Counted from the first letter of the stretch, positions 10,079 to 56,869 are shown. The stretch: DNA of 64,000 bases from an uncultured Candidatus Saccharibacteria bacterium (GCA_964615205.1 CAZTQA010000001.1:128510-192509), one strand, 5' to 3'. The notes: generated from the sequence alone by a model not told the origin. Translations and numbers: made by a program.

Positions 10079-10098
10079 AATTGTGGTATAATATTTTA

Positions 10099-10833
10099 AT
10101 GTCTAACGGAATTCATTTATCAGTAATCATACCGGCGTATAAAGAGGAAAAAAGGATTCCTGAAACCTTAAAGGAGGTTGATAAATATTTATCAAAGCAG
10201 GTTTACGGTTATGAAATTATTGTTGTCTGCGATGGTTCTCCGGATAGAACAGCTGAAGTAGTCCAGAAGATGACAAAAGACATTAAAAACCTGCGCTTAA
10301 TTGATAACAAAGAAAATCACGGCAAAGGTTATGTGGTCAGGCAAGGTTTATTGGAAGCTAAAGGAAAATTTCGCCTTTTTATGGATGCGGATAATTCCAC
10401 ATCCGTGGACCAGGTGGAAAAGATGTGGCCTGAATTTGAAAAAGATTTTGGGGTTGTTATCGGATCTAGGGATATTAAAGGAGCTGTTTTGGAACCGGCC
10501 CAGCCCTGGTGGCGCATAACGCTGGGTAATACCTATAATCTTATTGTACAGATTATTTCCGGACTTTGGGGAATCTGGGATACCCAATGCGGTTTTAAGG
10601 GTTTTACAGCCAAAGCTGCAAAGGATATTTTTTCCAAATGCCAAATTAATCGTTTTTCTTTTGACGTTGAGGTATTGGTTACAGCCAAAAAGATGGGCTA
10701 TAAAATAAAAGAAATTCCAGTTACTTGGAAAAATGATTTATCTAGTACAGTTGGTTTTAAATCAATGTTTAAGATGCTTGTTGAGGTTTTTCAAATTAGA
10801 TGGAATTTGATAACAGGAAAATATAATCTATGA
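10099..10833 (+). CDS. family-2 glycosyltransferase (dolichyl/polyprenyl-phosphate hexosyltransferase-like)
   Basis: LSVIIPAYKEE... and a DAD (DxD) motif. The ORF track starts at 10057, inside map. I prefer ATG 10099, which lies 6 nt after TGgTATAAT. Confidence 0.75.
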   Translation: MSNGIHLSVIIPAYKEEKRIPETLKEVDKYLSKQVYGYEIIVVCDGSPDRTAEVVQKMTKDIKNLRLIDNKENHGKGYVVRQGLLEAKGKFRLFMDADNSTSVDQVEKMWPEFEKDFGVVIGSRDIKGAVLEPAQPWWRITLGNTYNLIVQIISGLWGIWDTQCGFKGFTAKAAKDIFSKCQINRFSFDVEVLVTAKKMGYKIKEIPVTWKNDLSSTVGFKSMFKMLVEVFQIRWNLITGKYNL

Positions 10834-11891
10834 TAGATTTTTCTAAAAAAACTCTTACTTGTGATATTCCGAAATTTCCTTCAGAATTACGTTTTGATTT
10901 AGCTTCCAGGGATTGGGTTATTATTGCCACTGGCAGAGCCCGACGTCCGGAAACTTTTAAAAAGGAAAGGAGAAAAATAGAAAAAGTTTCTAAAAAGAAT
11001 TGTCCTTTTTGCCAAGTTCATACCCAAGAAATACCCACTCTTATTTTTTCTCAAGGCAAGAGATTAGATTTTAAGCCCACTCAAAAAATTCCTGAAGATT
11101 GGACTACCATTGTTGTACCCAATAAATTTCCAGCTTTTATTCCTTGCGCTGAACTAAACAAACAAATTGAGGTAAGAATGTTTGAGAAAATGAATGCAGT
11201 TGGTTTTCATGAAGTGGTTATCACTCGCGATCATAAAAAACAAATAAGCCAATTTTCTGTAGAAAAAATAAAAGAAGTCATAGATGTTTACCAGGCAAGA
11301 TATTTAAGTTTAATGAAAGAAAAATTTGTCCATTATGTTTCTATTTTCCATAATCATGGAATAGAAGCAGGAGCTTCCATAGCGCATCCTCATTCCCAAA
11401 TTATTACTTCTCCTCTTATTGATACAGATTTAAAAACTGCTATTAGCGATTCTAAAAAATTTTGGAAAAAGAATAAAAAATGCGTTTATTGTTTACTAGC
11501 TGAACTAGAATCAAAGAAAAAAGTAAGAGTGGTCTTTGAAAATGAAGGATTTCTGGTTATTTGTCCTTTTGCTTCCAAAATGGCTTTTGAAACAATTATT
11601 ACACCTAAAAAACATTCAGCTTATTTTGAAAAAATTACAGAGAAAGAAAAATGGCTTTTAGCTGAAGCTTTTCAACAAGCCACTAACCGGCTTTATAAGG
11701 CACTGGGAGATCCGGCTTATAATTTTTATTTACATACCGCTCCCTGCGACAAAAAAAAATATGAGTATTATCACTGGCACTGGACAATCTTGCCTAAAAC
11801 TTCTACTTGGGCTGGATTTGAAATAGGCACGGGTATGGAAATTTCCACTATTGAGCCAGAAAAAGCAGCCCAATATTTAAGAAAACAATGA
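10830..11891 (+). CDS. galactose-1-phosphate uridylyltransferase-like HIT-family enzyme
   Basis: CPFCQ zinc motif and HPHSQI (HxHxQ) active-site motif, twice-repeated half-barrel layout; 353 aa. Confidence 0.7.
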   Translation: MIDFSKKTLTCDIPKFPSELRFDLASRDWVIIATGRARRPETFKKERRKIEKVSKKNCPFCQVHTQEIPTLIFSQGKRLDFKPTQKIPEDWTTIVVPNKFPAFIPCAELNKQIEVRMFEKMNAVGFHEVVITRDHKKQISQFSVEKIKEVIDVYQARYLSLMKEKFVHYVSIFHNHGIEAGASIAHPHSQIITSPLIDTDLKTAISDSKKFWKKNKKCVYCLLAELESKKKVRVVFENEGFLVICPFASKMAFETIITPKKHSAYFEKITEKEKWLLAEAFQQATNRLYKALGDPAYNFYLHTAPCDKKKYEYYHWHWTILPKTSTWAGFEIGTGMEISTIEPEKAAQYLRKQ

Positions 11892-12346
11892 TTTTAGAAT
11901 TAAAAACATTTTTATTAGCCATGACTCCCTTGGGAGAACTGCGCTTGTCTATTCCTATTGCTTTGACTAGTTATCAGCTTTCTGTATGGTCTGCTTATCT
12001 CATTTCTGTTTTTGGTAATATAGTTCCGGCTATTTTTATTCTTTTGTTCTTGGAATCTTTTCTTAAACATGTAAAGGAAAAATCTCCTTTTTTGCATAAT
12101 TTTTTAAATTGGGTCTTTGTAAGAAATGAAAATAATCACAGAAAGAAATTTGAATATTGGAAGGAATTGGCCCTGGTAATCTTAGTAGCTATTCCCTTGC
12201 CTTTTACCGGTGCATGGACTGGTGCTATCTGCTCTTTTATTTTCCGAATTCCTTTTAAAAGAGCCGTTCCTTTGATATTCTTAGGCGTTCTTATCGCAGG
12301 AGCGTTAGTTACGTTATTCACCTTAGGCATACTACATTTATTTTAA
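11888..12346 (+). CDS. small multi-pass membrane protein (putative small multidrug-export family, PF06695-like)
   Basis: LGELRLSIPIAL and PLPFTGAWTGA motifs; 4 hydrophobic segments. Confidence 0.55.
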   Translation: MILELKTFLLAMTPLGELRLSIPIALTSYQLSVWSAYLISVFGNIVPAIFILLFLESFLKHVKEKSPFLHNFLNWVFVRNENNHRKKFEYWKELALVILVAIPLPFTGAWTGAICSFIFRIPFKRAVPLIFLGVLIAGALVTLFTLGILHLF

Positions 12347-12356
12347 ATATTAATCT

Positions 12357-19114: not shown

Positions 19115-19142
19115 ATATTAACAAAATCCTTTGAAAAATCAA
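19115..19142 (-). promoter_or_regulatory. putative rpmE-prfA promoter (TTGATT-16-TAATAT, 7 nt before ATG)
   Basis: Read on the minus strand: agggTTGATTtttcaaaggattttgtTAATATaaaatatATG. Confidence 0.55.
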
Positions 19143-19168: not shown

Positions 19169-19197
19169 TTGATTAATTTTAGAGGCAGTGATATATT
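19169..19197 (+). promoter_or_regulatory. putative rpsB promoter (TTGATT-17-TATATT, 9 nt before ATG)
   Basis: Hexamers at 19169-19174 and 19192-19197; divergent from the rpmE promoter. Confidence 0.5.
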
Positions 19198-19206
19198 ATA
19201 AGTATT

Positions 19207-19947
19207 ATGACGGAAGAAAAAAAAGAAAAAGTTAACGAAGTTAAAAAGACGTCTCCAAAAGAGACTAATTTTAAAATTGATATTAATGAAATGGTAAAAG
19301 CCGGTCTTAATTTTGGGCATCGGACTTCGCGTCTTCATCCTAAAATGTCTCCATATATTGAAGGGATTAAAAACACGGTTCATGTAATTGACTTAGCAAA
19401 GACTGCTCAAGAGTTGGGGAAAGCCCTTAAATTTATTCAGGAGATTGTTGTCCAGGATAAAGTTATGCTCGTGGTAGGAACCAAAATTCAGGTTAAGGAG
19501 TTGGTTAAAGAAATAGCTGAAGAGTGCGATCTTCCTTATGTAAGCGAAAGATGGCTTGGAGGGACTTTAACTAATTTTCCAGTTGTCTCCCAAAGAGTAG
19601 GATATTTAAAAGATTTAGAGAAAAAGAAATCCAGTGGAGAATGGGATAAATATACAAAGAAGGAAAAGATTAAAATGAACAAAGACCTTTCAAACTTAAA
19701 AATAAAGTTTGATGGTCTTAAAAAATTGGAACGGGTTCCAGATTGTTTACTGGTGCTGGATATTAAAAAAGATGATTTGGCTGTTAAAGAAGCTAAAATG
19801 AAAGGAATTAAAATTGTGGCTATCACAGACACCAATACTGATCCCAGTTTAGTTGATTATCCTATTCCTGCTAACGATGATGCTGTTTCTTCAGTAAAAT
19901 ATATTTTAGATAAAATAAAGGAAGTAATAAAAAAATCAAAAAAATAA
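19207..19947 (+). CDS. rpsB: 30S ribosomal protein uS2
   Basis: MVKAGLNFGHRTSRLHPKM..., RWLGGTLTNF motif. Confidence 0.95.
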   Translation: MTEEKKEKVNEVKKTSPKETNFKIDINEMVKAGLNFGHRTSRLHPKMSPYIEGIKNTVHVIDLAKTAQELGKALKFIQEIVVQDKVMLVVGTKIQVKELVKEIAEECDLPYVSERWLGGTLTNFPVVSQRVGYLKDLEKKKSSGEWDKYTKKEKIKMNKDLSNLKIKFDGLKKLERVPDCLLVLDIKKDDLAVKEAKMKGIKIVAITDTNTDPSLVDYPIPANDDAVSSVKYILDKIKEVIKKSKK

Positions 19948-20404: not shown

Positions 20405-20746
20405 ATGACCACTCTAATTTTATCTATAACTTTGCTCGTTAGCTTGGCTGGAATGATAATAATTATTTACCGCAAGCTTCCTCTGCTTATAGAATTACCT
20501 CTTGATAGTAGGGAGGGCGTTCTTTTGAGGGTCAAAGAAACTATTAAAGAGAAGGATTGGTCCAAGGTTTTTAATACTCGTAATTTTTTACGCAAGACAT
20601 TAATGCGCATTCGTATTTTAAATCTAAAGTCTGAAAATATGATTAACAAAAAATTAGAGGAATGGAGACATAGAGAAATCGAGAGACCTTCCCACGAAGA
20701 TAATTACTGGAGTAAGTTAAAAGATCTCACTCAAAAGAAGAAATAG
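20405..20746 (+). CDS. hypothetical single-pass membrane protein
   Basis: N-terminal hydrophobic helix followed by a charged tail; no recognisable motif. Confidence 0.5.
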   Translation: MTTLILSITLLVSLAGMIIIIYRKLPLLIELPLDSREGVLLRVKETIKEKDWSKVFNTRNFLRKTLMRIRILNLKSENMINKKLEEWRHREIERPSHEDNYWSKLKDLTQKKK

Positions 20747-20820
20747 GCCAGGGTAGCTCAATCGGCAGAGCAGCGCTTTTGTAAAGCGAAGGTTTGGGGG
20801 TTCGATTCCTCTCCCTGGCT
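20747..20820 (+). tRNA. tRNA-Thr (anticodon UGU)
   Basis: Manual cloverleaf: acceptor GCCAGGG/CCCTGGC, D arm GCTC-AATCGGCA-GAGC, anticodon arm GCGCT-TTTGTAA-AGCGA, T arm GGGGG-TTCGATT-CCTCT. No encoded CCA. Confidence 0.8.
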
Positions 20821-20835
20821 TGAGTTTAGCAGTTA

Positions 20836-20864
20836 TTGACAAAGAGAAAGAAAGAATATAAGAT
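20836..20864 (+). promoter_or_regulatory. putative 16S rRNA promoter (TTGACA-17-TAAGAT)
   Basis: TTGACA at 20836-20841, a 17-nt spacer, and TAAGAT at 20859-20864, about 70 nt upstream of the 16S 5' end. Confidence 0.6.
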
Positions 20865-20916
20865 GAAAATACGAATATAAAGGAAAGTTCCTTGAGAATT
20901 TATAATTGGTTTTTTC

Positions 20917-20929
20917 GAGTTGTCCCGAC
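20917..20929 (+). other. 5' half of the pre-16S processing stem
   Basis: gagttgtcccgac is perfectly complementary to gtcgggacaactc at 22512-22524. Confidence 0.75.
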
Positions 20930-20935
20930 TCATTT

Positions 20936-22424
<1,489 letters not shown>

Positions 22425-22511
22425 TAAAAAAGTTGTCGACAATGGTTGAAGTTTGGAATTCGAACTTTAACTATTCAGGTATTGGTCTCAGAACCTCAAA
22501 TCGAGACTATT

Positions 22512-22524
22512 GTCGGGACAACTC
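22512..22524 (+). other. 3' half of the pre-16S processing stem
   Basis: Complement of 20917-20929. It lies ~88 nt past the 16S 3' end and 18 nt before ATG 22542. Confidence 0.75.
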
Positions 22525-22541
22525 AAAGAAACCACTTTCTT

Positions 22542-24599
22542 ATGGAGGATTTGGAAAACAATTTAATAAAACTTAAGAGCCTTTCTAAACTTTTAAGAGA
22601 AAGCTGGGAATTGTATAAAACAAGGATCCGAACTCTGTTGACGATTGCTTTTTTGCCAATTGTTTTTTCATTATTTTTTTCTTTTTTGCTTCACTCTTTA
22701 GAAAAAACTAATTTACAATACTCAATTTTATTTTCTATAGTAGAGGTAATTTCTCTTTTAGTTTCTTTTTTTCTTTTGTTATGGATTACTCCTTCTCTAA
22801 TTTTAAGCATTAAAAACGATACTGACGCAGTAGATTCTTTAAAAGAGGGTTTAAGTTTTGTCGTTTCCTATTTCTGGCTTTATTTTCTAGTTAACATCAT
22901 TGTTTTGGGCGGAAGTTTGCTTTTAATAATTCCAGGAATATTATTTTCAATCTGGTTTGGTTTATCTGTTTATATTTTAGTTTTTGAACAAGAAAAAGGA
23001 TTCAAAGCTTTATTCGCCAGCAAAGAACTTGTTTCCGGTAATTTTATTAAAGTTTTATGGAGATTTTTAGCTTTTGGTTTAGTCATTTTCTTGTTTTTTT
23101 TATTTCTTAGTATTTTTCTTGTTTTTTTATTTCAAAGTTATGATTTTGTTGGTGATTTGATAGGTTATCTATTTAATTGGTTAGCTTTTCCTTTATTAGT
23201 TGTTTTTGGAATTTTACTTTACAAAAATTTAAGAGAACTAAAGAAAGAAGTTATATATCCAGAACCTTCAGTTGGAAGAAAAATAAAGTATATGATCCCA
23301 GGCTTTTTGGGAATACTGGTGGTTATGGCAACGGTGACCTTTGTTTCTTTAAATGTTTTTTGGGGAAGAGATGAACCGCCTTTTGATGATAGTGATTTGT
23401 GGTTATCTAAGGTAGAGATTAATCAAGAAGACAATGCTTTTTATTATTTCCAGGATATTGAGGAAAAAATTTACATTCCTTCCGATAAAGAGGAGAGAGA
23501 ATTATTCCGAGATATGGCTAACGGCAAAGTCTGGGATAGCGATTTTGCCAAAGATTTAATAGACAGAAACCAGGAAGCTTTTGAATATTTAGACAAAGCC
23601 CTTGCTTGCCCGGTTTATCAACAGCCATCATTAATGAATCCAGAAGAAATTTCAGGTTATACAATTTATCCTGCTCATGGTTCTATTCGAGAGATTGCCA
23701 GATTAACTTCTATAAAATCTGCTTATTTATTAGAACAAAATAAACCAGAAGAAGCTTTTAATGAAGCAATGAAAATATTAGAAATAACTTTTTTATTGAG
23801 AACAGCGCCCAATCCTACTATAATTGATTCTTTAATGTCTCTGGGCGTTAATCAGGTTGGATTGAATAGAATAAAATTAATTTTAGAAGAAGCTGATTTT
23901 TCTTCGCTAACATTAAAAAAATATATAGATAGACTAGATAACTTTAAAGAAAATAAAGATTGGGTAGAAAACAGTCTTAAAAGAGAATATATTGAATGGG
24001 TCAATAGTCAAGAGATGAGTTTGCAAAGTGATTTACCGCCATTTTCAGAGTATGCAGAACCTCCGTTAAGCGAAAGAATGCTTTCAGAAAAAAATCTAGC
24101 TAAATTTTATCTTTACAAGCCTAATAAAACTAAAAGAATCTTTGCTGATAATTATCAAAGAATGGTTAGAAACGCTGAGCAAGATTATTACAAGGATATA
24201 GAAGTCTTTGAGTATCAACGTTTTTGTCCAGATTCTGTAATAAAAATGCCCTTTACAGAAAATTTAGTAGGCAGAGTACTTCTTGATATGAGTGTAGTTT
24301 CTTTAGATGGATGCTTTGCAAAAAGTTGCTTGGATAATTTTAATTTAGATGCTATACAGGTTTTGATGGCCTTAAAGGCTTACCAGATTGACAATGGAGA
24401 ATTGCCGGATTCTTTAGAAAAACTTGTTCCAGAATACCTTTCGGAAGTGCCAAAAGATCCTTTTGACGGCCAACTAATTAGATTTTCTTTGGAAAAGAAA
24501 ATCATTTATTCAGTCGGTCAAGATCTTATAGATTCTGGCGGGAGCCAAGGAGATGATTTAGACTCAATGTCTGATCCTACTATTAAAATCGAGTTTTGA
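22542..24599 (+). CDS. large polytopic membrane protein with helical-repeat ectodomain and pseudopilin (GspG)-like C-terminus
   Basis: About 7 hydrophobic helices in the first ~300 aa. The C-terminus ALKAYQIDNGELPDSLEKLVPEYLSEVPKDPFDG...SVGQDLIDSGG resembles the T2SS protein G core. The track's TTG start at 22446 lies in the rRNA trailer, so I prefer ATG 22542. Confidence 0.6.
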   Translation: MEDLENNLIKLKSLSKLLRESWELYKTRIRTLLTIAFLPIVFSLFFSFLLHSLEKTNLQYSILFSIVEVISLLVSFFLLLWITPSLILSIKNDTDAVDSLKEGLSFVVSYFWLYFLVNIIVLGGSLLLIIPGILFSIWFGLSVYILVFEQEKGFKALFASKELVSGNFIKVLWRFLAFGLVIFLFFLFLSIFLVFLFQSYDFVGDLIGYLFNWLAFPLLVVFGILLYKNLRELKKEVIYPEPSVGRKIKYMIPGFLGILVVMATVTFVSLNVFWGRDEPPFDDSDLWLSKVEINQEDNAFYYFQDIEEKIYIPSDKEERELFRDMANGKVWDSDFAKDLIDRNQEAFEYLDKALACPVYQQPSLMNPEEISGYTIYPAHGSIREIARLTSIKSAYLLEQNKPEEAFNEAMKILEITFLLRTAPNPTIIDSLMSLGVNQVGLNRIKLILEEADFSSLTLKKYIDRLDNFKENKDWVENSLKREYIEWVNSQEMSLQSDLPPFSEYAEPPLSERMLSEKNLAKFYLYKPNKTKRIFADNYQRMVRNAEQDYYKDIEVFEYQRFCPDSVIKMPFTENLVGRVLLDMSVVSLDGCFAKSCLDNFNLDAIQVLMALKAYQIDNGELPDSLEKLVPEYLSEVPKDPFDGQLIRFSLEKKIIYSVGQDLIDSGGSQGDDLDSMSDPTIKIEF

Positions 24600-24649
24600 T
24601 TGAGGTCCGGCCTCAATCATTTTCTCCGGCTTGATTATAGACAGCCGGA
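24598..24649 (+). terminator. two consecutive hairpins after the 22542-24599 gene
   Basis: GATTGAGG-tccgg-CCTCAATC (24598-24618) followed by attttct; TCCGGCT-11 nt-AGCCGGA (24625-24649) followed by tttaatttt. Confidence 0.6.
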
Positions 24650-24672
24650 TTTAATTTTGTTAGAATAATAAG

Positions 24673-38283: not shown

Positions 38284-38284
38284 T

Positions 38285-38313
38285 TTGATAGGATTAGAGA
38301 TTTATGCTATATA
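38285..38313 (+). promoter_or_regulatory. putative promoter of cassette F (TTGATA-17-gcTATATA)
   Basis: Hexamers at 38285-38290 and 38308-38313. Confidence 0.5.
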
Positions 38314-38358
38314 TAATTAGTGTCACAATACAACAAAGATTAGGAAGTGAGGAAAGAG

Positions 38359-38751
38359 ATGGTCCTTTACAAAAACATAATAGATGTACAATGGGCAGGG
38401 GGATTGATAAAGGCAAGTGATCTGTCGGATAAAATCTTTTCAGATACAGGAGTGAAGGTTAATATAGATCCAGGAAAAAGACCAAAATACAAGGGAGAAG
38501 TAGTATTTTCGAAGTTCTCAGGTAAGCCAGCTCGTTCTCCAGAAGAAATTGTAGGGATAACAAAGAAAGAGTTTTTGCCTCTTCCGAATGGCATCACAGT
38601 GACAATTAAGGAAGAAAAAGCTGGAATAATCTGCGCAGTGGAATTTACAGAAAAAAATTACCGAGAATTCATAAAAACAATAAAAGATTTCTTCGGTGGT
38701 AATTCTAAAACGATAGAAGCAGAGTTCTTGAGGTTGTGCGGTAAAAAATAA
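38359..38751 (+). CDS. hypothetical ~130-aa protein (island cassette F; paralog of E)
   Basis: The ORF track starts at GTG 38347. ATG 38359 is preceded by GAGGAAAGAG. See E for the paralogy evidence. Confidence 0.65.
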   Translation: MVLYKNIIDVQWAGGLIKASDLSDKIFSDTGVKVNIDPGKRPKYKGEVVFSKFSGKPARSPEEIVGITKKEFLPLPNGITVTIKEEKAGIICAVEFTEKNYREFIKTIKDFFGGNSKTIEAEFLRLCGKK

Positions 38752-38754
38752 ATC

Positions 38755-38788
38755 GCTTGGGGATATTTAGAGCCAAGCCATTTTTTTT
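38755..38788 (+). terminator. intrinsic terminator T5 (stem related to T4)
   Basis: GCTTGG-12 nt-CCAAGC followed by cattttttttg. Its T-run overlaps the murA -35. Confidence 0.75.
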
Positions 38789-38815
38789 GACAAAAAGGAA
38801 GTTTTGAGCTAAGAT
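38787..38815 (+). promoter_or_regulatory. putative murA promoter (TTGACA-17-gcTAAGAT, 10 nt before ATG)
   Basis: Hexamers at 38787-38792 and 38810-38815. Confidence 0.55.
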
Positions 38816-38825
38816 TAAAAATGCT

Positions 38826-42016: not shown

Positions 42017-42046
42017 AAAAAATAATTTTAGTTATAATGTAATTAT

Positions 42047-42604
42047 ATGGATTATAAAGAGATTGTAAATAATATTAAACCGGAGATGGAAAAGACGATT
42101 AGTTTCCTGAAAGAAGAATTAAATAGAGTTCGCACAGGCCGAGCTTCCGTTTCTTTGGTGGAGGATGTAGAGGTTGAATGTTTTAATCAAAAGTTTCCCT
42201 TGAAGCAATTAGCCACTATTTCTATTCCTGAAGCCAGAACCATTGTTGTCCAACCCTGGGATAAATCTTATTTAGAACCCATTGAGAAAGCCATTTCACG
42301 ATCTTCCTTGAGCGCTTCACCGATAGTAGATAAGGATATAATAAGAATTAATTTGCCGCCCATGAGCGAAGAATACAGAAAAAGTTTTTTGAGATTTATT
42401 TCTGAAAAACAGGAAGAGTCAAGGAAGACTGTTCGTCGCTGGCGGGAAAAAGCCTGGGATGAGATTCAGGATAAAACCAGAGAAGGAGAAGTTAGGGAAG
42501 ACGATAAATTCAGGGCTAAAGACGATCTTCAGAAGTTAGTAGATGAGTATAATAGAAAGATTGAGGAAATGGGGGAGAAAAAGAAAAAAGAAATTTCAGA
42601 ATAA
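42047..42604 (+). CDS. frr: ribosome recycling factor
   Basis: 185 aa; LNRVRTGRASVSLVEDVEVE..., typical RRF. Confidence 0.95.
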   Translation: MDYKEIVNNIKPEMEKTISFLKEELNRVRTGRASVSLVEDVEVECFNQKFPLKQLATISIPEARTIVVQPWDKSYLEPIEKAISRSSLSASPIVDKDIIRINLPPMSEEYRKSFLRFISEKQEESRKTVRRWREKAWDEIQDKTREGEVREDDKFRAKDDLQKLVDEYNRKIEEMGEKKKKEISE

Positions 42605-43473: not shown

Positions 43474-43487
43474 ACTTTGCAATATGA

Positions 43488-43522
43488 AATCGCTATGAGG
43501 TTTGACCTCGTAGCGATTTTTT
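43488..43522 (+). terminator. intrinsic terminator after the M50 protease gene
   Basis: 13-bp stem AATCGCTATGAGG/CCTCGTAGCGATT, loop tttga, followed by a T-run. Confidence 0.8.
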
Positions 43523-43523
43523 G

Positions 43524-43552
43524 TTGATTATTTTTAGTTTTTGAGATAAGAT
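43524..43552 (+). promoter_or_regulatory. putative proS promoter (TTGATT-17-TAAGAT), -10 ends 6 nt before ATG
   Basis: Hexamers at 43524-43529 and 43547-43552; ATG at 43559. Confidence 0.6.
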
Positions 43553-43558
43553 TAAAAA

Positions 43559-44800
43559 ATGAGGCAGTCAGAGCTTTTAACTAAAACTTTAAGAAAAAGC
43601 CCTAAAGACGAAAAGAGTATTAGTGCCCAGCTTTTAATTAGAGCTGGTTTTATTGATAAACTAAGCTCTGGAGTATACACTCTTCTGCCTTTTGGTTTTA
43701 GAGTCTTAAGGAATATCCAAGATATTATTGCTCAAGAAATAGAAAACATCGGCGGACAAAGAGTATTAATGCCGGTTTTAGTTCCTAAAAAGAACTGGGA
43801 GCAAACAGGCCGCTGGGAAACCTTCGAAGAACTTTACAAACTGAAAGGAAAAGCAAATCAGAAATATGCTTTAGGTTCTACCCATGAAGAGGTAGTGGTT
43901 CCTTTAGTCCAAAAATATGTTTCTTCTTACAAAGATTTACCTTGTTTTGTTTATCAGATTCAAACAAAATTTAGAGATGAGCTAAGAGCAAAATCAGGTA
44001 TCTTAAGAACTAGAGAATTTGATATGAAAGATCTCTATTCTTTTCATAGAAATGAAGAAGATTTAGATGGGTATTATGAAAAAGTTAAAAAAACATATTT
44101 CAAAATTTTAGATAGAATAGACTTAAAAGATAAAACCTATTTAACTTTAGCTTCAGGAGGTACTTTTTCTAAATTTTCCCATGAATTTCAAACCCTTACT
44201 TCTGCAGGAGAAGATATTATTCATATTTGTCAAAATTGCGGATTGGCCGTTAATGAAGAAATAAAAAAAGATTATCCTAAATGTCCCAATTGTGGAAAAA
44301 ATAAATTTAGCAAAGAAAAAGCCATTGAAGTAGGAAATATTTTCAGGTTAGGACAGAAATACACCCAGCCCTTTAATTTCCAATTTACAGATAAGGATGG
44401 TTTCAAAAAAACAGTTGTTATGGGATGTTATGGTATAGGGCCTACGCGTTTAATGGGAACCGTTGCAGAAATTTATCATGATGATAAAGGAATTATCTGG
44501 CCAAAAGAGGTAGCTCCTTTTGATATCCATTTGATTCAAATAGGGAATAACCAAAAGATAAAGAGAGAATCTCAAAGAATATACCGAGAATTAAAAGAGC
44601 GGGGAAAGGAAGTATTGTTTGACGAGAGAGAAGACAGAACTCCGGGAGAAAAGTTTGCAGATGCTGATTTAATAGGTATGCCTGTTAGAATTTTGATAAG
44701 CCAGAAAACATTAGAAAAGAATTCAGTGGAATTTAAAGAGCGAGACAAAAAACAAATTAAATTAGTAAAAATAAACAATCTATTTAAATTCTGTGTTTAA
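43559..44800 (+). CDS. proS: prolyl-tRNA synthetase, compact, zinc ribbon in place of the INS editing domain
   Basis: Class II motifs (SGVYTLLPFGFRVLRNI, FRDELRAKSGILRTREFDMKD, GCYGIGPTR); CQNCG...CPNCG at aa 224-245; 413 aa. Confidence 0.85.
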   Translation: MRQSELLTKTLRKSPKDEKSISAQLLIRAGFIDKLSSGVYTLLPFGFRVLRNIQDIIAQEIENIGGQRVLMPVLVPKKNWEQTGRWETFEELYKLKGKANQKYALGSTHEEVVVPLVQKYVSSYKDLPCFVYQIQTKFRDELRAKSGILRTREFDMKDLYSFHRNEEDLDGYYEKVKKTYFKILDRIDLKDKTYLTLASGGTFSKFSHEFQTLTSAGEDIIHICQNCGLAVNEEIKKDYPKCPNCGKNKFSKEKAIEVGNIFRLGQKYTQPFNFQFTDKDGFKKTVVMGCYGIGPTRLMGTVAEIYHDDKGIIWPKEVAPFDIHLIQIGNNQKIKRESQRIYRELKERGKEVLFDEREDRTPGEKFADADLIGMPVRILISQKTLEKNSVEFKERDKKQIKLVKINNLFKFCV

Positions 44801-45845: not shown

Positions 45846-45870
45846 AATTTTTAATTTTTAAAATATACCT

Positions 45871-46158
45871 ATGATTAACAAAAAGGAAGTAGAACACATT
45901 GCCAAATTAGCCAGATTAAAATTAAGTGCGCAGGAGATAAAAGCTATGGAGAAAGAACTTTCTTCGGTTTTGGAGCATTTTAAGTTTCTGAATAAATTAG
46001 ATGTTTCTAAAATAAAGCCCACCAGTCATTTGGTTTCCTTAAAGAACGTTATGAGAGAAGACGAAGCTAGAAAACATTCGGAAGAAAAAGTAGAAAGATT
46101 ATTAAAAGCTATGCCTCAAAGGGAAGGAAGATATCTTAAGGTTAAATCTGTTTTTTAA
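45871..46158 (+). CDS. gatC: Asp/Glu-tRNA amidotransferase subunit C
   Basis: 95 aa; [13 protein letters not shown]...; precedes gatA. Confidence 0.9.
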
Positions 46159-48511: not shown

Positions 48512-48540
48512 TTGATTTTGCCTTAAAAATAAGCTAAAAT
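48512..48540 (+). promoter_or_regulatory. putative pheST promoter (TTGATT-17-gcTAAAAT), -10 ends 4 nt before ATG
   Basis: Hexamers at 48512-48517 and 48535-48540. ATG at 48545, with a second in-frame ATG at 48551. Confidence 0.55.
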
Positions 48541-48544
48541 AGAA

Positions 48545-49564
48545 ATGTATATGGATATAGAAACAATTAAAAAAGAGGCAGAAGAGGAGATAGGTTCGGT
48601 TAAAACATTGAAAGAATTAGACGATGTTTATAAAAAATATCTGGGTAAAAAGGGCAAACTAACCCAGATTTTGCGTTCTTTAAAAGACCTTTCTGAAAAA
48701 GAAAAAAAAGAAATTGGCAGAAAAGCTAATCAAGCTAAAACATATATAGAAACAAGTATTCGGGAAAAGAAATATATACTCCAATCAGCTCATTGGCTTT
48801 CTGCAAAAATTGAAGAATTTTTTGATATTACAGTTCCTTCCAAAAAGCCTTTAATTGGCCATCTCCATCCTATCACCCTAGCGAGGAGAAGGGTAGAAGA
48901 AATTTTCCAGCAAATGGGTTTTTCTGTAATAGAGGGTCCGGAAATAGAAACAGAATGGTATAATTTTGATGCTTTGAATATTCCCAAAGATCATCCGGCT
49001 CGGGATGCTTGGGATACTTTTTATCTTAAGAATAATCTTCTTCTGCGTACTCATACTTCGCCGGTTCAGATTCATCATATGGAAAAGCATCAACCGCCCT
49101 TAAGGATTATTGCTCCGGGCAAAGCTTTTCGTCATGAAGCCACTGATGCTGCTCACGAAGCTCAGTTCTACCAGTTAGAGGGATTAATGGTTGATAAAGA
49201 TGTTTCTGTGGCTAATTTTAAGGCAATAATGAAAGAATTCTTTCAGAAATTCTTTAATAAAGAATTGAAAATAAGAATAAGGCCTGGATTTTTTCCTTTT
49301 ACCGAACCCAGCTTTGAAATGGATATCAGCTGCGTTAATTGTGATGGCAAAGGATGTAGCGTTTGCAAACAGACAGGCTGGGTGGAAACATTGGGAGCTG
49401 GAATGGTTCATCCCGATGTTTTAAAAGCTGGCGGATTAAATCCCAGAAATTGGCAGGGTTTTGCTTTTGGTGTGGGATTGGATCGTTTAATAATGATGAA
49501 ATATAAAATTAATAACATCCGCTTGTTTTATTCCAGCGACCTACGTTTCTTAGAACAATTTTAA
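48545..49564 (+). CDS. pheS: phenylalanyl-tRNA synthetase alpha subunit
   Basis: Class II core (HPITLARRRVEEIF, LRTHTSPVQ, FRHEATDAAHEAQFYQLEG, GFAFGVGLDRL). Confidence 0.95.
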   Translation: MYMDIETIKKEAEEEIGSVKTLKELDDVYKKYLGKKGKLTQILRSLKDLSEKEKKEIGRKANQAKTYIETSIREKKYILQSAHWLSAKIEEFFDITVPSKKPLIGHLHPITLARRRVEEIFQQMGFSVIEGPEIETEWYNFDALNIPKDHPARDAWDTFYLKNNLLLRTHTSPVQIHHMEKHQPPLRIIAPGKAFRHEATDAAHEAQFYQLEGLMVDKDVSVANFKAIMKEFFQKFFNKELKIRIRPGFFPFTEPSFEMDISCVNCDGKGCSVCKQTGWVETLGAGMVHPDVLKAGGLNPRNWQGFAFGVGLDRLIMMKYKINNIRLFYSSDLRFLEQF

Positions 49565-51551: not shown

Positions 51552-53494
51552 GAAAAGAAAAAATTCAACCCAAAATTAAAAAAAAGAACAGGGAAGAAGA
51601 ATACGGAGCTAAAGACATTTATGTTTTAGAAGGCCTTGAACCGGTGAGGAGAAGGCCGGGTATGTATATTGGCTCCACTGGTCCAGACGGATTACATCAT
51701 TTAATCTGGGAGGTTTTAGATAATGGTATTGATGAATGTATGGGTGGTTATGCTAATGAGATTGAAATTGCTCTTCTCTCTGGGAATAGAGTCAGCTGTC
51801 AGGATAATGGAAGAGGCATTCCTGTGGATATTCATTCTCAAACTAAAAAGTCAGCTTTGGAAACAGTTATGACAACGCTTCATGCCGGAGCCAAATTTGG
51901 AGGAAAAGCCTATCAGGTTGCTGGTGGTCTTCATGGCGTAGGAGTTTCTGTTGTTTGTGCTCTTTCTAAGTGGATGAGAGCTGAAGTTTGCCGAAATAAT
52001 ATCAAATACACACAGGAATATTCTAAGGGTAAACCCACTACTAAATTAAAGAAAGATGGAAAATGCAGACAAACCGGAACCCGGGTCTGCTTTGAACCAG
52101 ATGAAGAAATCTTTAAGGAAGTTCAGTTCGATCTAAAAAGAATCATTAATCATCTGCGCCAGCAAGCTTATTTAACCAAAGGAGTGAGAATTAATATCAG
52201 AGATAAAAGAGAAAAAGACGAAAAGATTTATAATTTCTATTTTGAGGGAGGACTTACAGCATATATAAAGCATTTGATTCGAGGAAGAGAAGTAAAAAAT
52301 GAAAATGCTTTTTATGTTTCTGGGAAAAAAGATGAAATTGTGGTAGAGTCAGTTTTTCAATATACTCAAGAATATGAATGCTATGAAGAAAGTTTTGTTA
52401 ATAATATTTACACTGGAGAAGGGGGGACTCATTTAACAGGGTTTAGAGCAGCTTTGACTAGAAGTTTGAATGACTATGCTCGCAGAAATGGATTGATTAA
52501 AGGAAGTGAAGAAAATCTAAGCGGTGATGACGTAAGAGAAGGTCTTACAGCTGTGGTTTCAGTTAAAATAAGGGAGCCTCAGTTTGAAGGTCAGACTAAA
52601 GCTAAATTAGGTAATCCCGAAGCCAAAATGGCCGTAGAATCAGTTATTACTGAAGGATTAGCCGATTTTTTGGAAAGAAATCCTCAAGATGCCCGTACAA
52701 TTATTAACAGTTGTCTATTATCAGCCAAAGCCAGAAAGGCAGCCAAAGCAGCCAAGCAGACAGTTTTAAGAAAAGGAGCCTTGGATGGTTTGGCTTTGCC
52801 TGGAAAATTAGCTGATTGTTCTTCCCGAGAGCCAGAAGAATCAGAAATCTATATCGTGGAAGGAGAGTCGGCAGGGGGAAGTGCTAAGGGAGCGCGGGAC
52901 AGAAGATTCCAGGCCATTTTGCCTTTACGCGGAAAAATTCTTAACACGGAGAGGGCACGTTTAGATAAAATTTTAGCTTCCAAAGAGATTAAGTCTTTAA
53001 TTATCGCTTTAGGTACAGCTATTGCCGAAGATTTTAATATTGAGAAAGCAAGATATCACAGGATTATTATAATGTGTGATGCTGATTCAGACGGTAATCA
53101 TATTAGAACTTTACTTTTAACTCTTTTTTTCAGATATTTTAAGCCTCTTATTGAAGCCGGCTACTTATATATCGCTCAACCGCCCCTTTACCGTATTCAA
53201 ACAGGTTCCCGGATTGAATATGCTTACACTGATTCAGACAAAACAGAGATTTTAAGCGACATGAAAAAAACAGCCGGAATAAATATCCAAAGGTATAAGG
53301 GTTTAGGCGAAATGAATCCCCAGCAGCTTTGGGAAACGACCATGAATCCAGAAAACAGAGTGCTTTTGAAGGTTAATATCGAAGATGCTAAAGAGGCAGA
53401 TTTAATCTTTGATACCTTAATGGGACAGGAGGTTTTACCCAGAAAAAGGTTTATTCAGACTCACGCTAAAAAGGTTAAGAATCTTGACATTTAA
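51548..53494 (+). CDS. gyrB: DNA gyrase subunit B
   Basis: LEGLEPVRRRPGMYIGST, GHKL ATPase, Toprim (EIYIVEGESAGGSAK), PLRGKILN. ATG 51548 (ATGA overlap with pheT) is preferred over the track's GTG 51533. Confidence 0.95.
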   Translation: MRKEKIQPKIKKKNREEEYGAKDIYVLEGLEPVRRRPGMYIGSTGPDGLHHLIWEVLDNGIDECMGGYANEIEIALLSGNRVSCQDNGRGIPVDIHSQTKKSALETVMTTLHAGAKFGGKAYQVAGGLHGVGVSVVCALSKWMRAEVCRNNIKYTQEYSKGKPTTKLKKDGKCRQTGTRVCFEPDEEIFKEVQFDLKRIINHLRQQAYLTKGVRINIRDKREKDEKIYNFYFEGGLTAYIKHLIRGREVKNENAFYVSGKKDEIVVESVFQYTQEYECYEESFVNNIYTGEGGTHLTGFRAALTRSLNDYARRNGLIKGSEENLSGDDVREGLTAVVSVKIREPQFEGQTKAKLGNPEAKMAVESVITEGLADFLERNPQDARTIINSCLLSAKARKAAKAAKQTVLRKGALDGLALPGKLADCSSREPEESEIYIVEGESAGGSAKGARDRRFQAILPLRGKILNTERARLDKILASKEIKSLIIALGTAIAEDFNIEKARYHRIIIMCDADSDGNHIRTLLLTLFFRYFKPLIEAGYLYIAQPPLYRIQTGSRIEYAYTDSDKTEILSDMKKTAGINIQRYKGLGEMNPQQLWETTMNPENRVLLKVNIEDAKEADLIFDTLMGQEVLPRKRFIQTHAKKVKNLDI

Positions 53495-53546
53495 TTTCTT
53501 TGTAATAATATAAAAGTAGGCCCGACGAGGGCTGTTTTAAAAACTT

Positions 53547-53750
53547 ATGGATATCAAAAATTTACCTAAAAAAATTATCACTTTTTTAAAGGAAGCTAAA
53601 CTAGAATTGAAAAAAGTAAACTGGCCCACGCGCGAGGAGAGTTTGCGTTATACTATGATTGTTATTGTTGTTTCTGTTTTTGTGGCTGCTTTTTTGGGTG
53701 GACTGGATGTGGTTTTTAACAGACTGCTTGAAAAGATGCTCTCTTTGTAA
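53547..53750 (+). CDS. secE: preprotein translocase subunit SecE
   Basis: 67 aa; ...ELKKVNWPTREE... plus one C-terminal TM; precedes nusG. Confidence 0.85.
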   Translation: MDIKNLPKKIITFLKEAKLELKKVNWPTREESLRYTMIVIVVSVFVAAFLGGLDVVFNRLLEKMLSL

Positions 53751-53786
53751 CTTTTAATTTTTCACTTTTAATTTTAAACTTGAAAC

Positions 53787-54332
53787 ATGCCTAAACAACA
53801 AATTCCACAAGAGAAAAATTGGTATGTGCTTCATACTTATTCTGGTTATGAAGATGCTGTTGCTAAGAGCTTAAAACAGCGTATTGAATCTTTAGGAATG
53901 GAAGATAAGATTTTTGATGTTATTGTTCCCAAAGAAAAGAAAATCAAGATAAAAAATGGCAAAAGAAAGGTGATAGAAGAGAAAATTTACCCAGGTTATG
54001 TTTTAGTTCAAATGCTGGTTACTGATGATTCCTGGTATGTAGTTAGAAATACTCCCAATGTAACTGGTTTTGTTGGTGCGGGAACTACTCCTGTTCCTGT
54101 TTCTAAGACAGAGATTGATTCATTAAAAAAGAGAATGGGAGTAGAAGAGCCTCAATTTAAGATTGATGTTAGAGTAGGGGACGCAGTTAAGGTTACAGAT
54201 GGGCTTTTCAAGGATTATGACGGAAGAGTGGCAGAAGTGGATGAAGAAAGAGGAAAAGTCAAAGTTTTAATTAATATGTTTGGTAGAGATACTCCGGTAG
54301 AATTAGATTCTCTCCAAATTAAAAAAATATGA
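53787..54332 (+). CDS. nusG: transcription termination/antitermination factor NusG
   Basis: [14 protein letters not shown]..., C-terminal KOW ([18 protein letters not shown]). Confidence 0.95.
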
Positions 54333-54748
54333 AGAAGATAAAAGCTGTAGTCAAAGTACAAATTCAAGCTGGACAGGCTAATCCAGCTCCTCCACTAGGC
54401 CCGGCTTTAGCCCAGCATGGTGTTAATATTTCTGAATTCTGTCAGAAATTTAATGATGCTACCAAAAATCAGACCGGTTTTAAGCTCCCGGTAGAAATTA
54501 CAATCTATGAAGATAAAAGCTATAATTTTAAGATAAAACAGCCTCCAGCTGCTGAGCTTTTGAAAAAAATAGCTGCTATTGAAAAAGGTTCTGGTACTCC
54601 CAACAAAAAGAAAGCGGCTAAAATAACTAAAGCTCAATTAAAGGAAATTGCGGAAAAGAAAATGCCGGATTTAAATGCTTTTGATATTGAGGCAGCAATG
54701 AAAATCATTGAAGGTACTGCAAAACAAATGGGAATAGAAATAGAATAA
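54329..54748 (+). CDS. rplK: 50S ribosomal protein uL11
   Basis: [26 protein letters not shown]... Confidence 0.95.
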
Positions 54749-54749
54749 T

Positions 54750-55253
54750 ATGCGTTCTACAAAAGACCAATATTATTTAAATATTGCCAAAGAAGTGGCT
54801 CAACGTTCTACTTGTCAGAGGATGAAATTCGGAGCTATTATTGTAAGAGATGATCAGATTATTGCTACTGGCTATAACGGAGCTCCTAGAAAAACAAAAG
54901 ATTGCTTTGAAAGAGGCGATTGTTTTAGAGACAAAAACACTATTCCCCATGGCCAGAAATATGAGCTCTGCCGGAGTGTGCATGCTGAACAGAATGCCAT
55001 TATTAACGCAGCTAGAGCAGGTGTTTCTCTCCTTAACGGGGATATGTTTATTTATGCAGAGGATATAAAGAAAGGAAATATTGTTGATTCTTTTCCCTGC
55101 TTTATTTGCAAAAAAATAATTATTAATGCTGGTTTGAACAGAGTTATCTGTTCAACGGCTGATAAAAGTTATAAGGTTTTTAATATTGAGGATTGGATTA
55201 AAGATTGGCAGGAAAAAGATATTTCAGATGATAAATATCAATACGGCAAATAA
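54750..55253 (+). CDS. dCMP deaminase (ComEB family)
   Basis: HAEQNAI and PCFICKK zinc-binding motifs of the cytidine/dCMP deaminase fold. Confidence 0.8.
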   Translation: MRSTKDQYYLNIAKEVAQRSTCQRMKFGAIIVRDDQIIATGYNGAPRKTKDCFERGDCFRDKNTIPHGQKYELCRSVHAEQNAIINAARAGVSLLNGDMFIYAEDIKKGNIVDSFPCFICKKIIINAGLNRVICSTADKSYKVFNIEDWIKDWQEKDISDDKYQYGK

Positions 55254-55272
55254 ATGTATAAACGGCAAATAA

Positions 55273-55899
55273 ATGTATAAAAACACTTATCCAGGAAAAT
55301 TTATTGTTTTTGATGGATTAGATGGGGCTGGACAATCAACTCAAGCTGCCAAATTATTTGATTACTTGGATGAAAAAAAACAAAAAACTCGCTTTGGGCA
55401 TAGTGGTGTTCAGATTACTAAAGAACCAACAGGCAATTTGATTGGCGGATTGATAAAAGGGCAGCTGACCCATGACTGGAAGTCGTCTCCCGAATGTCTT
55501 CAGCTTCTCTTTGCTGCTGACAGGGCTCACCATTTGGAAAAGGAGGTAATTCCTCTCTTAGAAAAAGGCGTAGATGTGATTTGCGACCGTTATTTTTTTT
55601 CCAGCTTTGCTTTTGGATCTTTGAATCTAAATATGGATTGGCTTATAAAAATCAATCATAATTTTTTATTACCTGATATAACATTTTTTCTTAAGGTTTC
55701 TCCTAAAGTCTGCATAGAAAGGATTAAAAGAACGCGTTACGAAATAAATTTATTTGAAAAAGAGGAAATTACGGGGAAAGTATGGGATAATTACAAGAAA
55801 TTAAGTAAAAAGTTTAAAAACGTCTATATTATTAATGGTGAACAGCCGGTAGATAGGGTTTTTCAAGACGTAAAAAAAATAATTGACCGCAAGCTTTAG
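55273..55899 (+). CDS. tmk: thymidylate kinase
   Basis: FIVFDGLDGAGQSTQ P-loop, DRY-like motif (CDRYFFSS). Confidence 0.85.
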   Translation: MYKNTYPGKFIVFDGLDGAGQSTQAAKLFDYLDEKKQKTRFGHSGVQITKEPTGNLIGGLIKGQLTHDWKSSPECLQLLFAADRAHHLEKEVIPLLEKGVDVICDRYFFSSFAFGSLNLNMDWLIKINHNFLLPDITFFLKVSPKVCIERIKRTRYEINLFEKEEITGKVWDNYKKLSKKFKNVYIINGEQPVDRVFQDVKKIIDRKL

Positions 55900-55909
55900 T
55901 TTTCCACTA

Positions 55910-55937
55910 TTGACTTATCTTTTTATTCATTTATAAT
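55910..55937 (+). promoter_or_regulatory. putative promoter of orphan small-ORF cassette (TTGACT-16-TATAAT)
   Basis: Hexamers at 55910-55915 and 55932-55937. GGGAGGA at 55946-55952 lies 8 nt before TTG 55961. Confidence 0.55.
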
Positions 55938-55960
55938 GTATACTTGGGAGGATAGAAATA

Positions 55961-56095
55961 TTGCGGAACGTAACTGGAACACCTGGAGTGGTGAAGGTGG
56001 ATGACGTAATCGATTTTATACCTGGCATAGATGGCGAAAAGCCAGAAATACTCGTCAGGGATGAATCGGTGATCGTAAAACCAGGAACAAGATAG
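55961..56095 (+). CDS. hypothetical 44-aa protein (TTG start), orphan SD-bearing cassette
   Basis: Not in the ORF track (<60 aa). My translation is (M)RNVTGTPGVVKVDDVIDFIPGIDGEKPEILVRDESVIVKPGTR. It has a promoter, an SD and a terminator around it, and is visibly G+C-richer than its flanks. Confidence 0.45.
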   Translation: MRNVTGTPGVVKVDDVIDFIPGIDGEKPEILVRDESVIVKPGTR

Positions 56096-56101
56096 TCTGG
56101 A

Positions 56102-56128
56102 AAAGAGGATTTTATTTTTTTCCTCTTT
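56102..56128 (+). terminator. hairpin terminator after the 44-aa ORF
   Basis: AAAGAGGA-11 nt-TCCTCTTT followed by ctattttttt. Confidence 0.6.
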
Positions 56129-56218
56129 CTATTTTTTTAGCACATTTATTAGTACTTTAATTTTGGTGAAGAGCTCAAATGCCCTTCCTTTTATTTTCAA
56201 AAAAGCTATAATAAAAAT

Positions 56219-56869
56219 ATGAAAAATATCGCTCAATACATTGACCATACCAATATAGAGAAAGGTACTACAGCTCAAGATATTAAAAAAACCTGTCAAG
56301 AAGCTAAAAAATATGGTTTTAGGGGGGTTTGCGTTAATCCTCAATGGGTAAAATTAGTTAAAAAAGAAGTAGAGGGAACTGATATTAAGGTTGTGGTTTT
56401 AATTGATGGACCTATGGGTTTGAGTTCTCATCAAAAAAGATTAAAAATATGCCAAAAAGCAAAGAAAGACGGAGCTGATAATTTAGACATAGTTATGAAT
56501 GTCGTTGATTTAAAATATGAAAGATATAGTAAAATTTTAAAAGATTTAAAGCCTCTTTGTAAAATCCTATCTACTAAAGTTATTATTGGTTCAGGTTATT
56601 TAACTGATGAAGAAATCATTAAAGCGTCTCAATTAGTTAAAAGAGCAGGAGCTAAATGTGTAAAAACAGCTACTTTTAAAGATCCTTTAGAACACAGGGA
56701 GCTGGAAGAAAAATTATATCATTTAAAATTAATGAGAGAAGGAGCACCCGGACTTTTAATTAAAACAGCTGGAAAAATTAAAGATTTATCAGATGTTAAA
56801 AAAGCTATAAAATCTGGTGCAGATATAATCGGCACCAGTTCCGGTGTGAAAATAATGAAAGAATTATGA
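56219..56869 (+). CDS. deoC: deoxyribose-phosphate aldolase
   Basis: [15 protein letters not shown]...GFRGVCVNP...; active-site Lys context [14 protein letters not shown] (56207-56212) ends 6 nt before the ATG. Confidence 0.8.

Follow-up and report, generated by a model that had tools for sequence, protein, structure and literature searches.

How a ribosome finds its start codons once the anti-Shine-Dalgarno (anti-SD) sequence has disappeared from the 16S rRNA is the question raised by a 64,000-nucleotide (nt) stretch of DNA deposited under an uncultured Candidatus Saccharibacteria bacterium (GCA_964615205.1 CAZTQA010000001.1:128510-192509). The whole of this stretch is hereafter called the window, coordinates are counted from its first letter, and features lie on the plus strand unless stated otherwise. 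An initial sequence-only reading had pointed to six genes in which a -10 hexamer of the form TAnnnT is followed by exactly 6 nt and then by the ATG, and had proposed that operon-head genes are leaderless in an organism without an anti-SD. For first cistrons, the window and about 160 related loci offer a concrete, testable answer in the form of mRNAs that are promoter-fused and leaderless; for the remaining genes, reinitiation is a plausible answer. In the arrangement that we consider quite probable, first cistrons are leaderless or nearly so and downstream cistrons are translated by termination-reinitiation, in a host from the Candidate Phyla Radiation (CPR) that has lost the anti-SD. The interpretation of the sequence-only reading is supported by every computational test that was run, with two of its six loci left doubtful.

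The best relatives of the encoded AlaS (52-69% identity) come from metagenome-assembled genomes (MAGs) of Candidatus Nealsonbacteria, Parcubacteria, Paceibacterota and Minisyncoccales and from the cultured Minisyncoccus archaeiphilus PMX.108. Given these identities, the AlaS-based phylogenetic placement makes the host a Parcubacteria-type member of the CPR (Nealsonbacteria- or Minisyncoccales-like). Two sets of relatives were assembled: set 1, retrieved via AlaS, consists of 80 loci (1.2 Mb) of Parcubacteria species other than the host, and set 2, retrieved via NusG, of 80 independent metagenome loci; together they make up 160 loci and about 1.9 Mb. Genes in these loci were called in a deliberately crude manner, as the first ATG of each long open reading frame (ORF); in the window, an operon head was defined as a gene with an upstream gap of at least 19 nt or a divergent neighbour (n = 26).

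The 16S rRNA gene of the window (20935-22424; Rfam RF00177, 1428 bits) is full length, and its 3' end reads GGAUCAUUACAUUC where the bacterial consensus of the Rfam alignment reads GGAUCACCUCCUUU. In the tail itself, GGATCATTACATTC (22411-22424), UUACA stands in place of the canonical anti-SD CCUCC, and no CCUCC is visible in the approximately 100 nt read downstream of it. In the five relatives with a 16S rRNA gene within the fetched flanks, one of which is M. archaeiphilus, CCUCC is likewise absent, and the tails read GGAUCAUUUAUUU or GGACUAUUUAUUU; the earlier claim of a ribosome without an anti-SD is thus borne out in the host, and extends to these five relatives. Because CCUCC is missing from the tail, the ribosome is predicted to operate without SD pairing. 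SD motifs are also scarce: SD-like 4-mers precede 21% of the window genes, compared with 14.5% of random 21-mers, and in the relatives SD-like motifs occur in 3% of the heads with an abutting promoter and in 3-14% of internal genes across the gap bins, the SD-like fraction being at background in every related locus. The relatives provide no contrast group for a correlation between leaderless architecture and SD use, because all 97 of the 97 loci with at least eight genes are SD-poor.

Two other modes of pairing were considered and rejected. Residual SD use finds little room given that SD-like 4-mers and 5-mers are near background and that GGAGG is not enriched in intergenic DNA (3-4 occurrences seen, 2.9 expected); the SD-like leaders of a few small ORFans, described below, do not fit this picture. 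As for replacement pairing with the new 16S tail, k-mers of its reverse complement are over-represented before starts (TTAGAA, 8 occurrences against 1.4 expected; also TAGAAT and ATGTAA), and they were rejected as a ribosome-binding site because their distances to the ATG, from 2 to more than 25 nt, are unlocalised and because they mostly lie in A-rich C-terminal coding sequence.

Given that SD pairing appears unusable, starts would be organised in two SD-independent ways, the first of which concerns operon heads. In the window, TAnnnT at spacer 6 (that is, with 6 nt between the hexamer and the start codon) is found in 8 of the 26 heads, against a mean of 1.1 at other spacers; in 5000 dinucleotide-preserving shuffles, eight at spacer 6 was never reached, and eight at any spacer was reached in 0.04% (P = 0.0004). 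In set 1, the hexamer occupies spacer 6 in 11.8% of 635 crude heads and other spacers in about 3.5%. Under a strict promoter definition, which demands TAnnnT plus either a -35 matching at least 4/6 at 16-18 nt or TGn, the counts at spacers 6, 7, 8 and 9 are 48, 18, 27 and 11 over a background of about 5. The NusG-retrieved set has its peak at the same place, although weaker, so that the enrichment analysis named in the sequence-only reading, of -10 hexamers relative to first-in-operon starts with controls, gives a positive result both in the window and in the approximately 1.9 Mb of relatives.

The hexamers at spacer 6 do not come alone. The base at -14 is G in 57% of these cases (background G, 16%), TGn (TG at -15/-14) is present in 48% compared with 0-14% at control spacers, and a -35 TTG, 16-18 nt upstream, in 32% compared with 4-15% in the controls. 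Given this co-occurrence of TGn and the -35 TTG, the spacer-6 hexamers as a set are recognisable as real sigma-70 promoters rather than as AT-rich noise or in-frame stop codons. When genes are sorted by the size of the intergenic gap, an abutting promoter is found in 24% at 19-40 nt, in 17% at 41-100 nt and in close to none of the overlapping genes (the same comparison at control spacers of 15-19 nt gives 4-5%); abutting promoters are thus most frequent in gaps barely large enough to hold one. Two-element promoters at spacers 4-10 are found at 10 heads of the window, and a further four heads have only a -10, at spacer 6.

The coordinates of all six hexamer-spacer-ATG sites of the earlier reading (GT2, alaS, proS, gatC, nusG and deoC) proved exact when the sequence was read again, and for GT2, alaS, proS and deoC the assignment as putative leaderless genes is well supported. 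The GT2 glycosyltransferase gene (10084-10101), located 20 nt past the stop of the preceding gene, has the extended -10 TGgTATAAT (10084-10092), 6 nt and ATG 10099; its N-terminus matches GT2 profiles from position 2, and four orthologues that align from residue 1 have kept (TGn)TAAAAT, 6 nt and ATG. The strongest cases are alaS and proS, each with a strong intrinsic terminator immediately upstream of the promoter. At alaS (24597-24675), the terminator (24597-24619, followed by a T-run) precedes the -35 TAGACA (24638-24643), 17 nt, TGtTAGAAT (24658-24666), 6 nt and ATG 24673; AlaS residues 1-555 align to profile positions 1-593, and relatives in which alaS is first in its operon have TGnTAnnnT at a distance of 6-8 nt from the ATG, most often at spacer 6 (12 loci), although the sequences have diverged. 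At proS (43486-43561), a terminator with a 16-bp hairpin (43486-43520) is followed by the -35 TTGATT (43524-43529), 17 nt, the -10 TAAGAT (43547-43552), 6 nt and ATG 43559; with just 38 nt between hairpin and ATG, a promoter fits there only by abutting the start codon. ProS residues 1-236 align to profile positions 1-236. The deoC head (56207-56221) consists of a consensus TATAAT (56207-56212), 6 nt and ATG 56219, with no recognisable -35; DeoC residues 4-213 align to profile positions 2-210, and several deoC orthologues at operon heads have TGnTAnnnT 6-8 nt from the ATG. The pgeF head (36725-36739; TAAAAT 36725-36730, 6 nt, ATG 36737), which the earlier reading had missed, has the same spacing. 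Altogether, the alignments of AlaS, ProS, GatC, DeoC, MurA and GT2 to full-length NCBIfam profiles start at the first or second profile position, and the ATGs of these six genes are therefore true starts; the start codon is ATG in every case.

A further group of heads has its promoter at spacers other than 6, and the values given for these genes in the sequence-only reading (pheS 4, the PEGA-domain gene 5, rpmE 7, infA and frr 8, rpsB 9) were all recovered. On the minus strand, rpmE (19115-19142) has the -35 TTGATT (19142-19137), 16 nt, TGtTAATAT (hexamer 19120-19115), 7 nt and ATG at 19107, and the PEGA-domain gene (35429-35461) has TTGATT (35461-35456), 16 nt, TAAAAT (35439-35434), 5 nt and ATG at 35428. 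On the plus strand, rpsB (19169-19209) has TTGATT (19169-19174), 17 nt, TGaTATATT (hexamer 19192-19197), 9 nt and ATG 19207, with an implied leader of about 2 nt; infA (29476-29515) has TTGACT (29476-29481), 17 nt, TGtTAATCT (hexamer 29499-29504), 8 nt and ATG 29513; frr (42011-42049) has TTGTGA (42011-42016), 16 nt, TATAAT (42033-42038), 8 nt and ATG 42047; and pheS (48512-48553) has TTGATT (48512-48517), 17 nt and TAAAAT (48535-48540), which lies 4 nt from ATG 48545 and 10 nt from a second in-frame ATG at 48551. To these murA (38787-38828), overlooked in the earlier reading, is to be added, with a perfect TTGACA (38787-38792), 17 nt, TAAGAT (38810-38815), 10 nt and ATG 38826, and with an implied leader of about 3 nt. 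In about 15 orthologues of the PEGA-domain gene, 6-9 nt separate TAnnnT from the ATG, and TGn or a -35 TTGGCA is often present as well; murA orthologues have TTGCCA or TTGACA, 17 nt and TAnnnT 6-11 nt from the ATG; and tmk orthologues in the relatives similarly keep a promoter 6-10 nt from the ATG. The spacing is thus conserved despite sequence divergence in the orthologues of GT2, alaS, deoC, tmk, murA and the PEGA-domain gene; these checks cover the fetched loci, in which orthologues of proS, rpmE, rpsB and FBPase are absent.

Could the hexamers be chance matches in AT-rich intergenic DNA, given that TAnnnT is common at the 35% GC of the window and that the six sites were chosen post hoc? 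A generic promoter scan of the window does return counts close to those of shuffled sequence (64 against 56.6, 70 against 54.3 and 56 against 53.5) and is uninformative by count, the signal being visible only in the positional analysis; the gatC and nusG motifs, moreover, are not conserved in orthologues. However, the spacer-6 peak survives dinucleotide shuffling even when all spacers are taken into account, recurs in the 1.2 Mb of other species at about ten times background, and brings TGn and the -35 TTG at the right distances, so that chance is largely refuted, and very improbable, as an explanation of the whole set, although it could hold for gatC and nusG individually. An artefact of start codon definition is scarcely credible either. 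Because ORFs run from an in-frame stop, a TAA or TAG at -12 would inflate TAnnnT at spacers 0, 3, 6, 9 and 12; five of seven sites indeed read TAA or TAG at -12, and internal genes show a ripple with a period of 3 (8.0, 5.8, 7.1, 6.0 and 5.3% at these spacers, 2-4.5% out of frame). Yet equal enrichment at spacers 3, 9 and 12 was looked for and not seen: heads reach their 11.8% at spacer 6 against 4.4, 6.5 and 5.4% at the other in-frame spacers, the strict definition puts the in-frame controls at background (3 at spacer 3 and 7 at spacer 12, against 48), and stop codons are unable to yield the enrichment of TGn and -35.

A different reading, which we regard as unlikely, accepts the promoters as real and places the transcription start a few nt away, such that there would be leaders of 1-6 nt or a downstream start codon, with initiation on unstructured A/U-rich leaders as in Bacteroidota or Mycoplasma. 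The spacers in the window span 4-10 nt, the relatives show a shoulder at spacers 7-9, and orthologues of two genes point in the same direction: in pheS orthologues the start codon corresponds to the second ATG and the -10 is located approximately 10-13 nt before it, implying a leader of 3-6 nt, and in infA orthologues the -10 lies about 14 nt from the ATG, before a short conserved leader AAUUAUCU. Against this stand the mode of exactly 6, at which the canonical +1 coincides with the A of the ATG, and the profile N-termini, which exclude downstream starts for AlaS, ProS, GatC and DeoC. A leader of 1-3 nt acts as leaderless in the organisms studied to date.

Several findings nevertheless weigh against the leaderless reading or restrict its reach. 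The gatC site (45859-45873; TAAAAT 45859-45864, 6 nt, ATG 45871) lies 25 nt behind the co-directional mreB, without a -35, TGn or terminator, and a -10 at 3-12 nt was found in none of the six gatC orthologues. At nusG (53775-53789; TAAACT 53775-53780, 6 nt, ATG 53787), 36 nt behind the co-directional secE, the -35 is weak and there is no terminator; among 61 distinct upstream regions of nusG orthologues, TAnnnT is at spacer 6 in four, with a flat distribution that amounts to background, and in many of the relatives shown, nusG apparently starts no more than about 10 nt past the secE stop. Both sites are graded weak because a second promoter element is missing and orthologues have not kept the motif; they may be either chance matches or recent, lineage-specific internal promoters. 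For deoC and pgeF, a -10 alone is present. By comparison with their relatives, pheS and infA are more likely to be short-leadered (3-7 nt) than leaderless. At least six heads (secE, hyp69, hyp237, hyp67, hyp132 and hyp90) have strong promoters 15-37 nt from the ATG and, by this distance, are clearly leadered, and SD-like purine runs, including GGGAGG and GAGGTGAT, are found in 4-5 leadered genes (hyp69, hyp67, hyp132 and hyp130; also hyp237, at a greater distance), although such runs have no role in the present model. The share of leaderless heads is 10-14 of about 26 in the window and about 15% of the crude heads in the relatives by the strict definition, which is only approximate because the gene calls in the relatives are crude. 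Finally, the leaderless case, for the host as well as for its relatives, is drawn from sequence.

The leaderless reading translates into the following mechanism. In many first cistrons, a sigma-70 promoter would be fused to the coding sequence, often as an extended TGnTAnnnT, to which a TTGaca -35 at 16-18 nt may be added, and with 6-8 nt between the end of the -10 and the ATG. RNA polymerase usually starts about 7 nt past the -10, and the transcript would therefore begin at the A of the AUG or 1-3 nt before it. Such an mRNA would be recognised through its 5'-terminal AUG together with the initiator tRNA; both the actual transcription start sites and this mode of ribosome loading are inferred. 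The second SD-independent way would serve downstream cistrons, which start within 10 nt of the preceding stop or overlap it and would be translated by termination-reinitiation coupling. Of the 68 same-strand junctions in the window, 43 are no longer than 10 nt, 11 being overlapping and 12 having exactly 1 nt, so that downstream genes are packed against upstream stops, with starts as near to stops as termination-reinitiation demands. Translation of a downstream gene would then depend on translation of the upstream one.

A -10 (Pribnow) box 6-8 nt from the start is an accepted mark of leaderless genes in bacteria and defines 'group C' of GeneMarkS-2, which in the account given there covers 90% of Actinobacteria and 97% of Deinococcus-Thermus, with 25-50% of operons in those genomes (PMC6028130). 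The genes described here resemble group C, for example Mycobacterium tuberculosis and Deinococcus-Thermus, in the -10 at 6-8 nt, in the AUG starts and in the lack of an SD (PMC6028130). They differ from it in that, according to the same account, the remaining genes of group C genomes use SD sites and the 16S rRNA keeps its anti-SD, whereas here the anti-SD is gone and internal genes lack an SD and lie within 10 nt of an upstream stop, a pattern other than that of SD-using remaining genes; in addition, the promoters of the present set are rich in AT, and many have the extended TGn form. Neither Parcubacteria nor the CPR is among the groups named in that description of group C (PMC6028130). Since a -10 at 6-8 nt from the AUG is textbook knowledge for Actinobacteria and Deinococcus, what is described here extends known biology to a new lineage and is not a new mechanism.

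Loss of the anti-SD in this part of the tree is also on record. The motif was detected in just 48% of Parcubacteria, and its loss overlaps the group that lacks uL1 (Tsurumaki et al. 2022, RNA 28:1041, PMC9297842); CPR examples are listed among 'SD-scarce organisms lacking CCUCC' (PLoS One 2024, 19:e0289914, PMC10783764). With the anti-SD-less subgroup of Parcubacteria, as presented in these reports, the host shares a 16S tail without CCUCC/CCUCCU and scarce SD use (PMC9297842; PMC10783764). In the window, the gene after rplK (54329-54748) encodes a ComEB-like dCMP deaminase, which breaks the usual nusG-rplK-rplA-rplJ order (54329-55253), and the uL1 gene (rplA) was not found at its usual site after rplK within these 64 kb of genome; as far as 64 kb can tell, this order is consistent with the uL1-lacking group. 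The papers on anti-SD loss leave the mode of translation start open: 'leaderless' occurs 0 times in the 2022 paper (PMC9297842), and the passages of the 2024 paper on leaderless mRNAs treat only archaea and other bacterial groups (PMC10783764). Compared with these reports, the promoter-to-ATG fusion described here is a candidate mechanism. Leaderless architecture and anti-SD loss in Parcubacteria have each been published; no literature that links leaderless genes with CPR, Patescibacteria or Parcubacteria was found in open-access texts and bioRxiv, and neither was a link between the two. The sole CPR set of transcription start sites found in the literature is that of Nanosynbacter lyticus (Saccharibacteria), obtained by RNA-seq.

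Outside bacteria, the nearest likeness is to leaderless archaea such as the Nanoarchaeia ('group D' of GeneMarkS-2), which, as these sources describe them, are also SD-scarce small-genome symbionts without CCUCC and with leaderless first cistrons (PMC10783764; PMC6028130). Their promoters, however, have a TATA-like box approximately 22-26 nt from the start and depend on TBP/TFB, whereas here bacterial sigma-70 elements (-10/-35) are found, with the -10 at 6-8 nt. The Bacteroidota, as exemplified by Flavobacterium johnsoniae, resemble the host in having mRNAs that naturally lack an SD and are A/U-rich upstream (PMC6847099), although F. johnsoniae keeps the anti-SD that is absent here, and its mRNAs are leadered, with Kozak-like upstream positions and without a promoter fixed 6-8 nt from the start. 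Many other Flavobacteriia are listed as lacking CCUCC (PMC10783764).

A wider proposition, on which we are evenly divided at best, is that anti-SD-less Parcubacteria are wholly SD-free, each cistron being either promoter-fused at its AUG or located within about 10 nt of an upstream stop, and that this regime shapes the layout of the genome. If so, it would account for the bimodal gaps (at most 10 nt or approximately one promoter length), for internal promoters in gaps of 19-40 nt and for relay mini-ORFs such as the one at tmk (see below); it would also provide a mechanistic reason why loss of the anti-SD is tolerated, and would make these organisms the first bacterial clade with leaderless initiation plus reinitiation as the default and not as an add-on. 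For gene-start prediction in CPR metagenome bins, SD-based models would mis-call starts, and a group C-type model without a ribosome-binding-site component should fit better. The same considerations are relevant to the design of expression in the first cultured members, such as M. archaeiphilus.

The tmk start is associated with a 19-nt tandem duplication, ACGGCAAATAAATGTATAA, present in two copies (55243-55280) that span the stop of the dCMP deaminase gene and the start of tmk. The first copy forms a six-codon mini-ORF, MYKRQI (ATG TAT AAA CGG CAA ATA TAA), which immediately follows the upstream stop and extends up to the tmk ATG (55273). The duplication has displaced this ATG from the upstream stop, but the stop of the mini-ORF abuts it and the stop-start contact is therefore preserved; judging from this arrangement, the mini-ORF looks like a relay that keeps translational coupling, a minor point in favour of termination-reinitiation.

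Several of the leadered genes are small ORFans in which a strong consensus promoter is followed by a real SD-like leader, namely hyp69 (ATG 35498), hyp67 (ATG 37503), hyp132 (ATG 37843) and hyp130 (ATG 38359). In hyp69, GGGAGG lies 7 nt before the ATG; in hyp132, the run GAGGTGAT is located at the same distance, behind a perfect TTGACA-17-TATAAT; and in hyp130, GAGGAAAGAG precedes the ATG. The layout recurs at an unannotated ORF of about 45 codons (approximately 55960-56097), where GGGAGG follows TTGACT-16-TATAAT. These small ORFans (regions 35486-38360 and 55910-56100) have no Pfam or Rfam match, nor did the fetched relatives yield homologues; an Rfam search of the long intergenic regions 55880-56230 and 35420-38840 returned zero matches at E <=1. 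At secE (53484-53549), the promoter TTGACA-16-TAATAT (53484-53511) is followed by a GC-rich hairpin with a T-run, GGCCCGACGAGGGCUGUUUU (53519-53538), about 8 nt before the ATG, and a comparable hairpin is present directly 5' of secE in many relatives; it could be either an upstream terminator or a leader/attenuator for the secE-nusG unit.

The start of rpoA (31418-31429) is ambiguous: the longest ORF begins at ATG 31418 (MNYMIPL...) and public gene calls use ATG 31427 (309 aa). At 5-9 nt from either ATG, no convincing -10 is present; TGtTAAATT is located 14 nt (or 23 nt) upstream. Two ORFs with 14 nt between them make up gatB, the first (56866-57699) covering profile positions 1-284 and the second (57714-58349) positions 287-481, and a TAAAAT runs right up to the ATG of the second ORF. 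The gene may be truly split, or the break may stem from sequencing or assembly.

Coding in the window is almost entirely on the plus strand and includes the S10-spc-alpha ribosomal protein operons, several aminoacyl-tRNA synthetase genes, four tRNA genes and the isolated 16S rRNA gene. Identical contigs are present in groundwater-type metagenomes, and the host is a groundwater bacterium with a tiny genome. Many of the closest genomes were deposited as 'uncultured Candidatus Saccharibacteria bacterium' (binchicken MAGs), a label that is probably generic or wrong because the AlaS of these genomes clusters with that of Nealsonbacteria, Parcubacteria and Minisyncoccales records. The 16S and 23S rRNA genes are unlinked, and the former is preceded by tRNA-Thr and by its own promoter, TTGACA-17-TAAGAT at 20836-20864 (region 20746-24599). 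A 717-aa membrane-type ORF with a weak match to UPF0259 begins 21 nt past the 16S rRNA 3' end, at TTG 22446, without a promoter of its own, and may be co-transcribed with the rRNA precursor.

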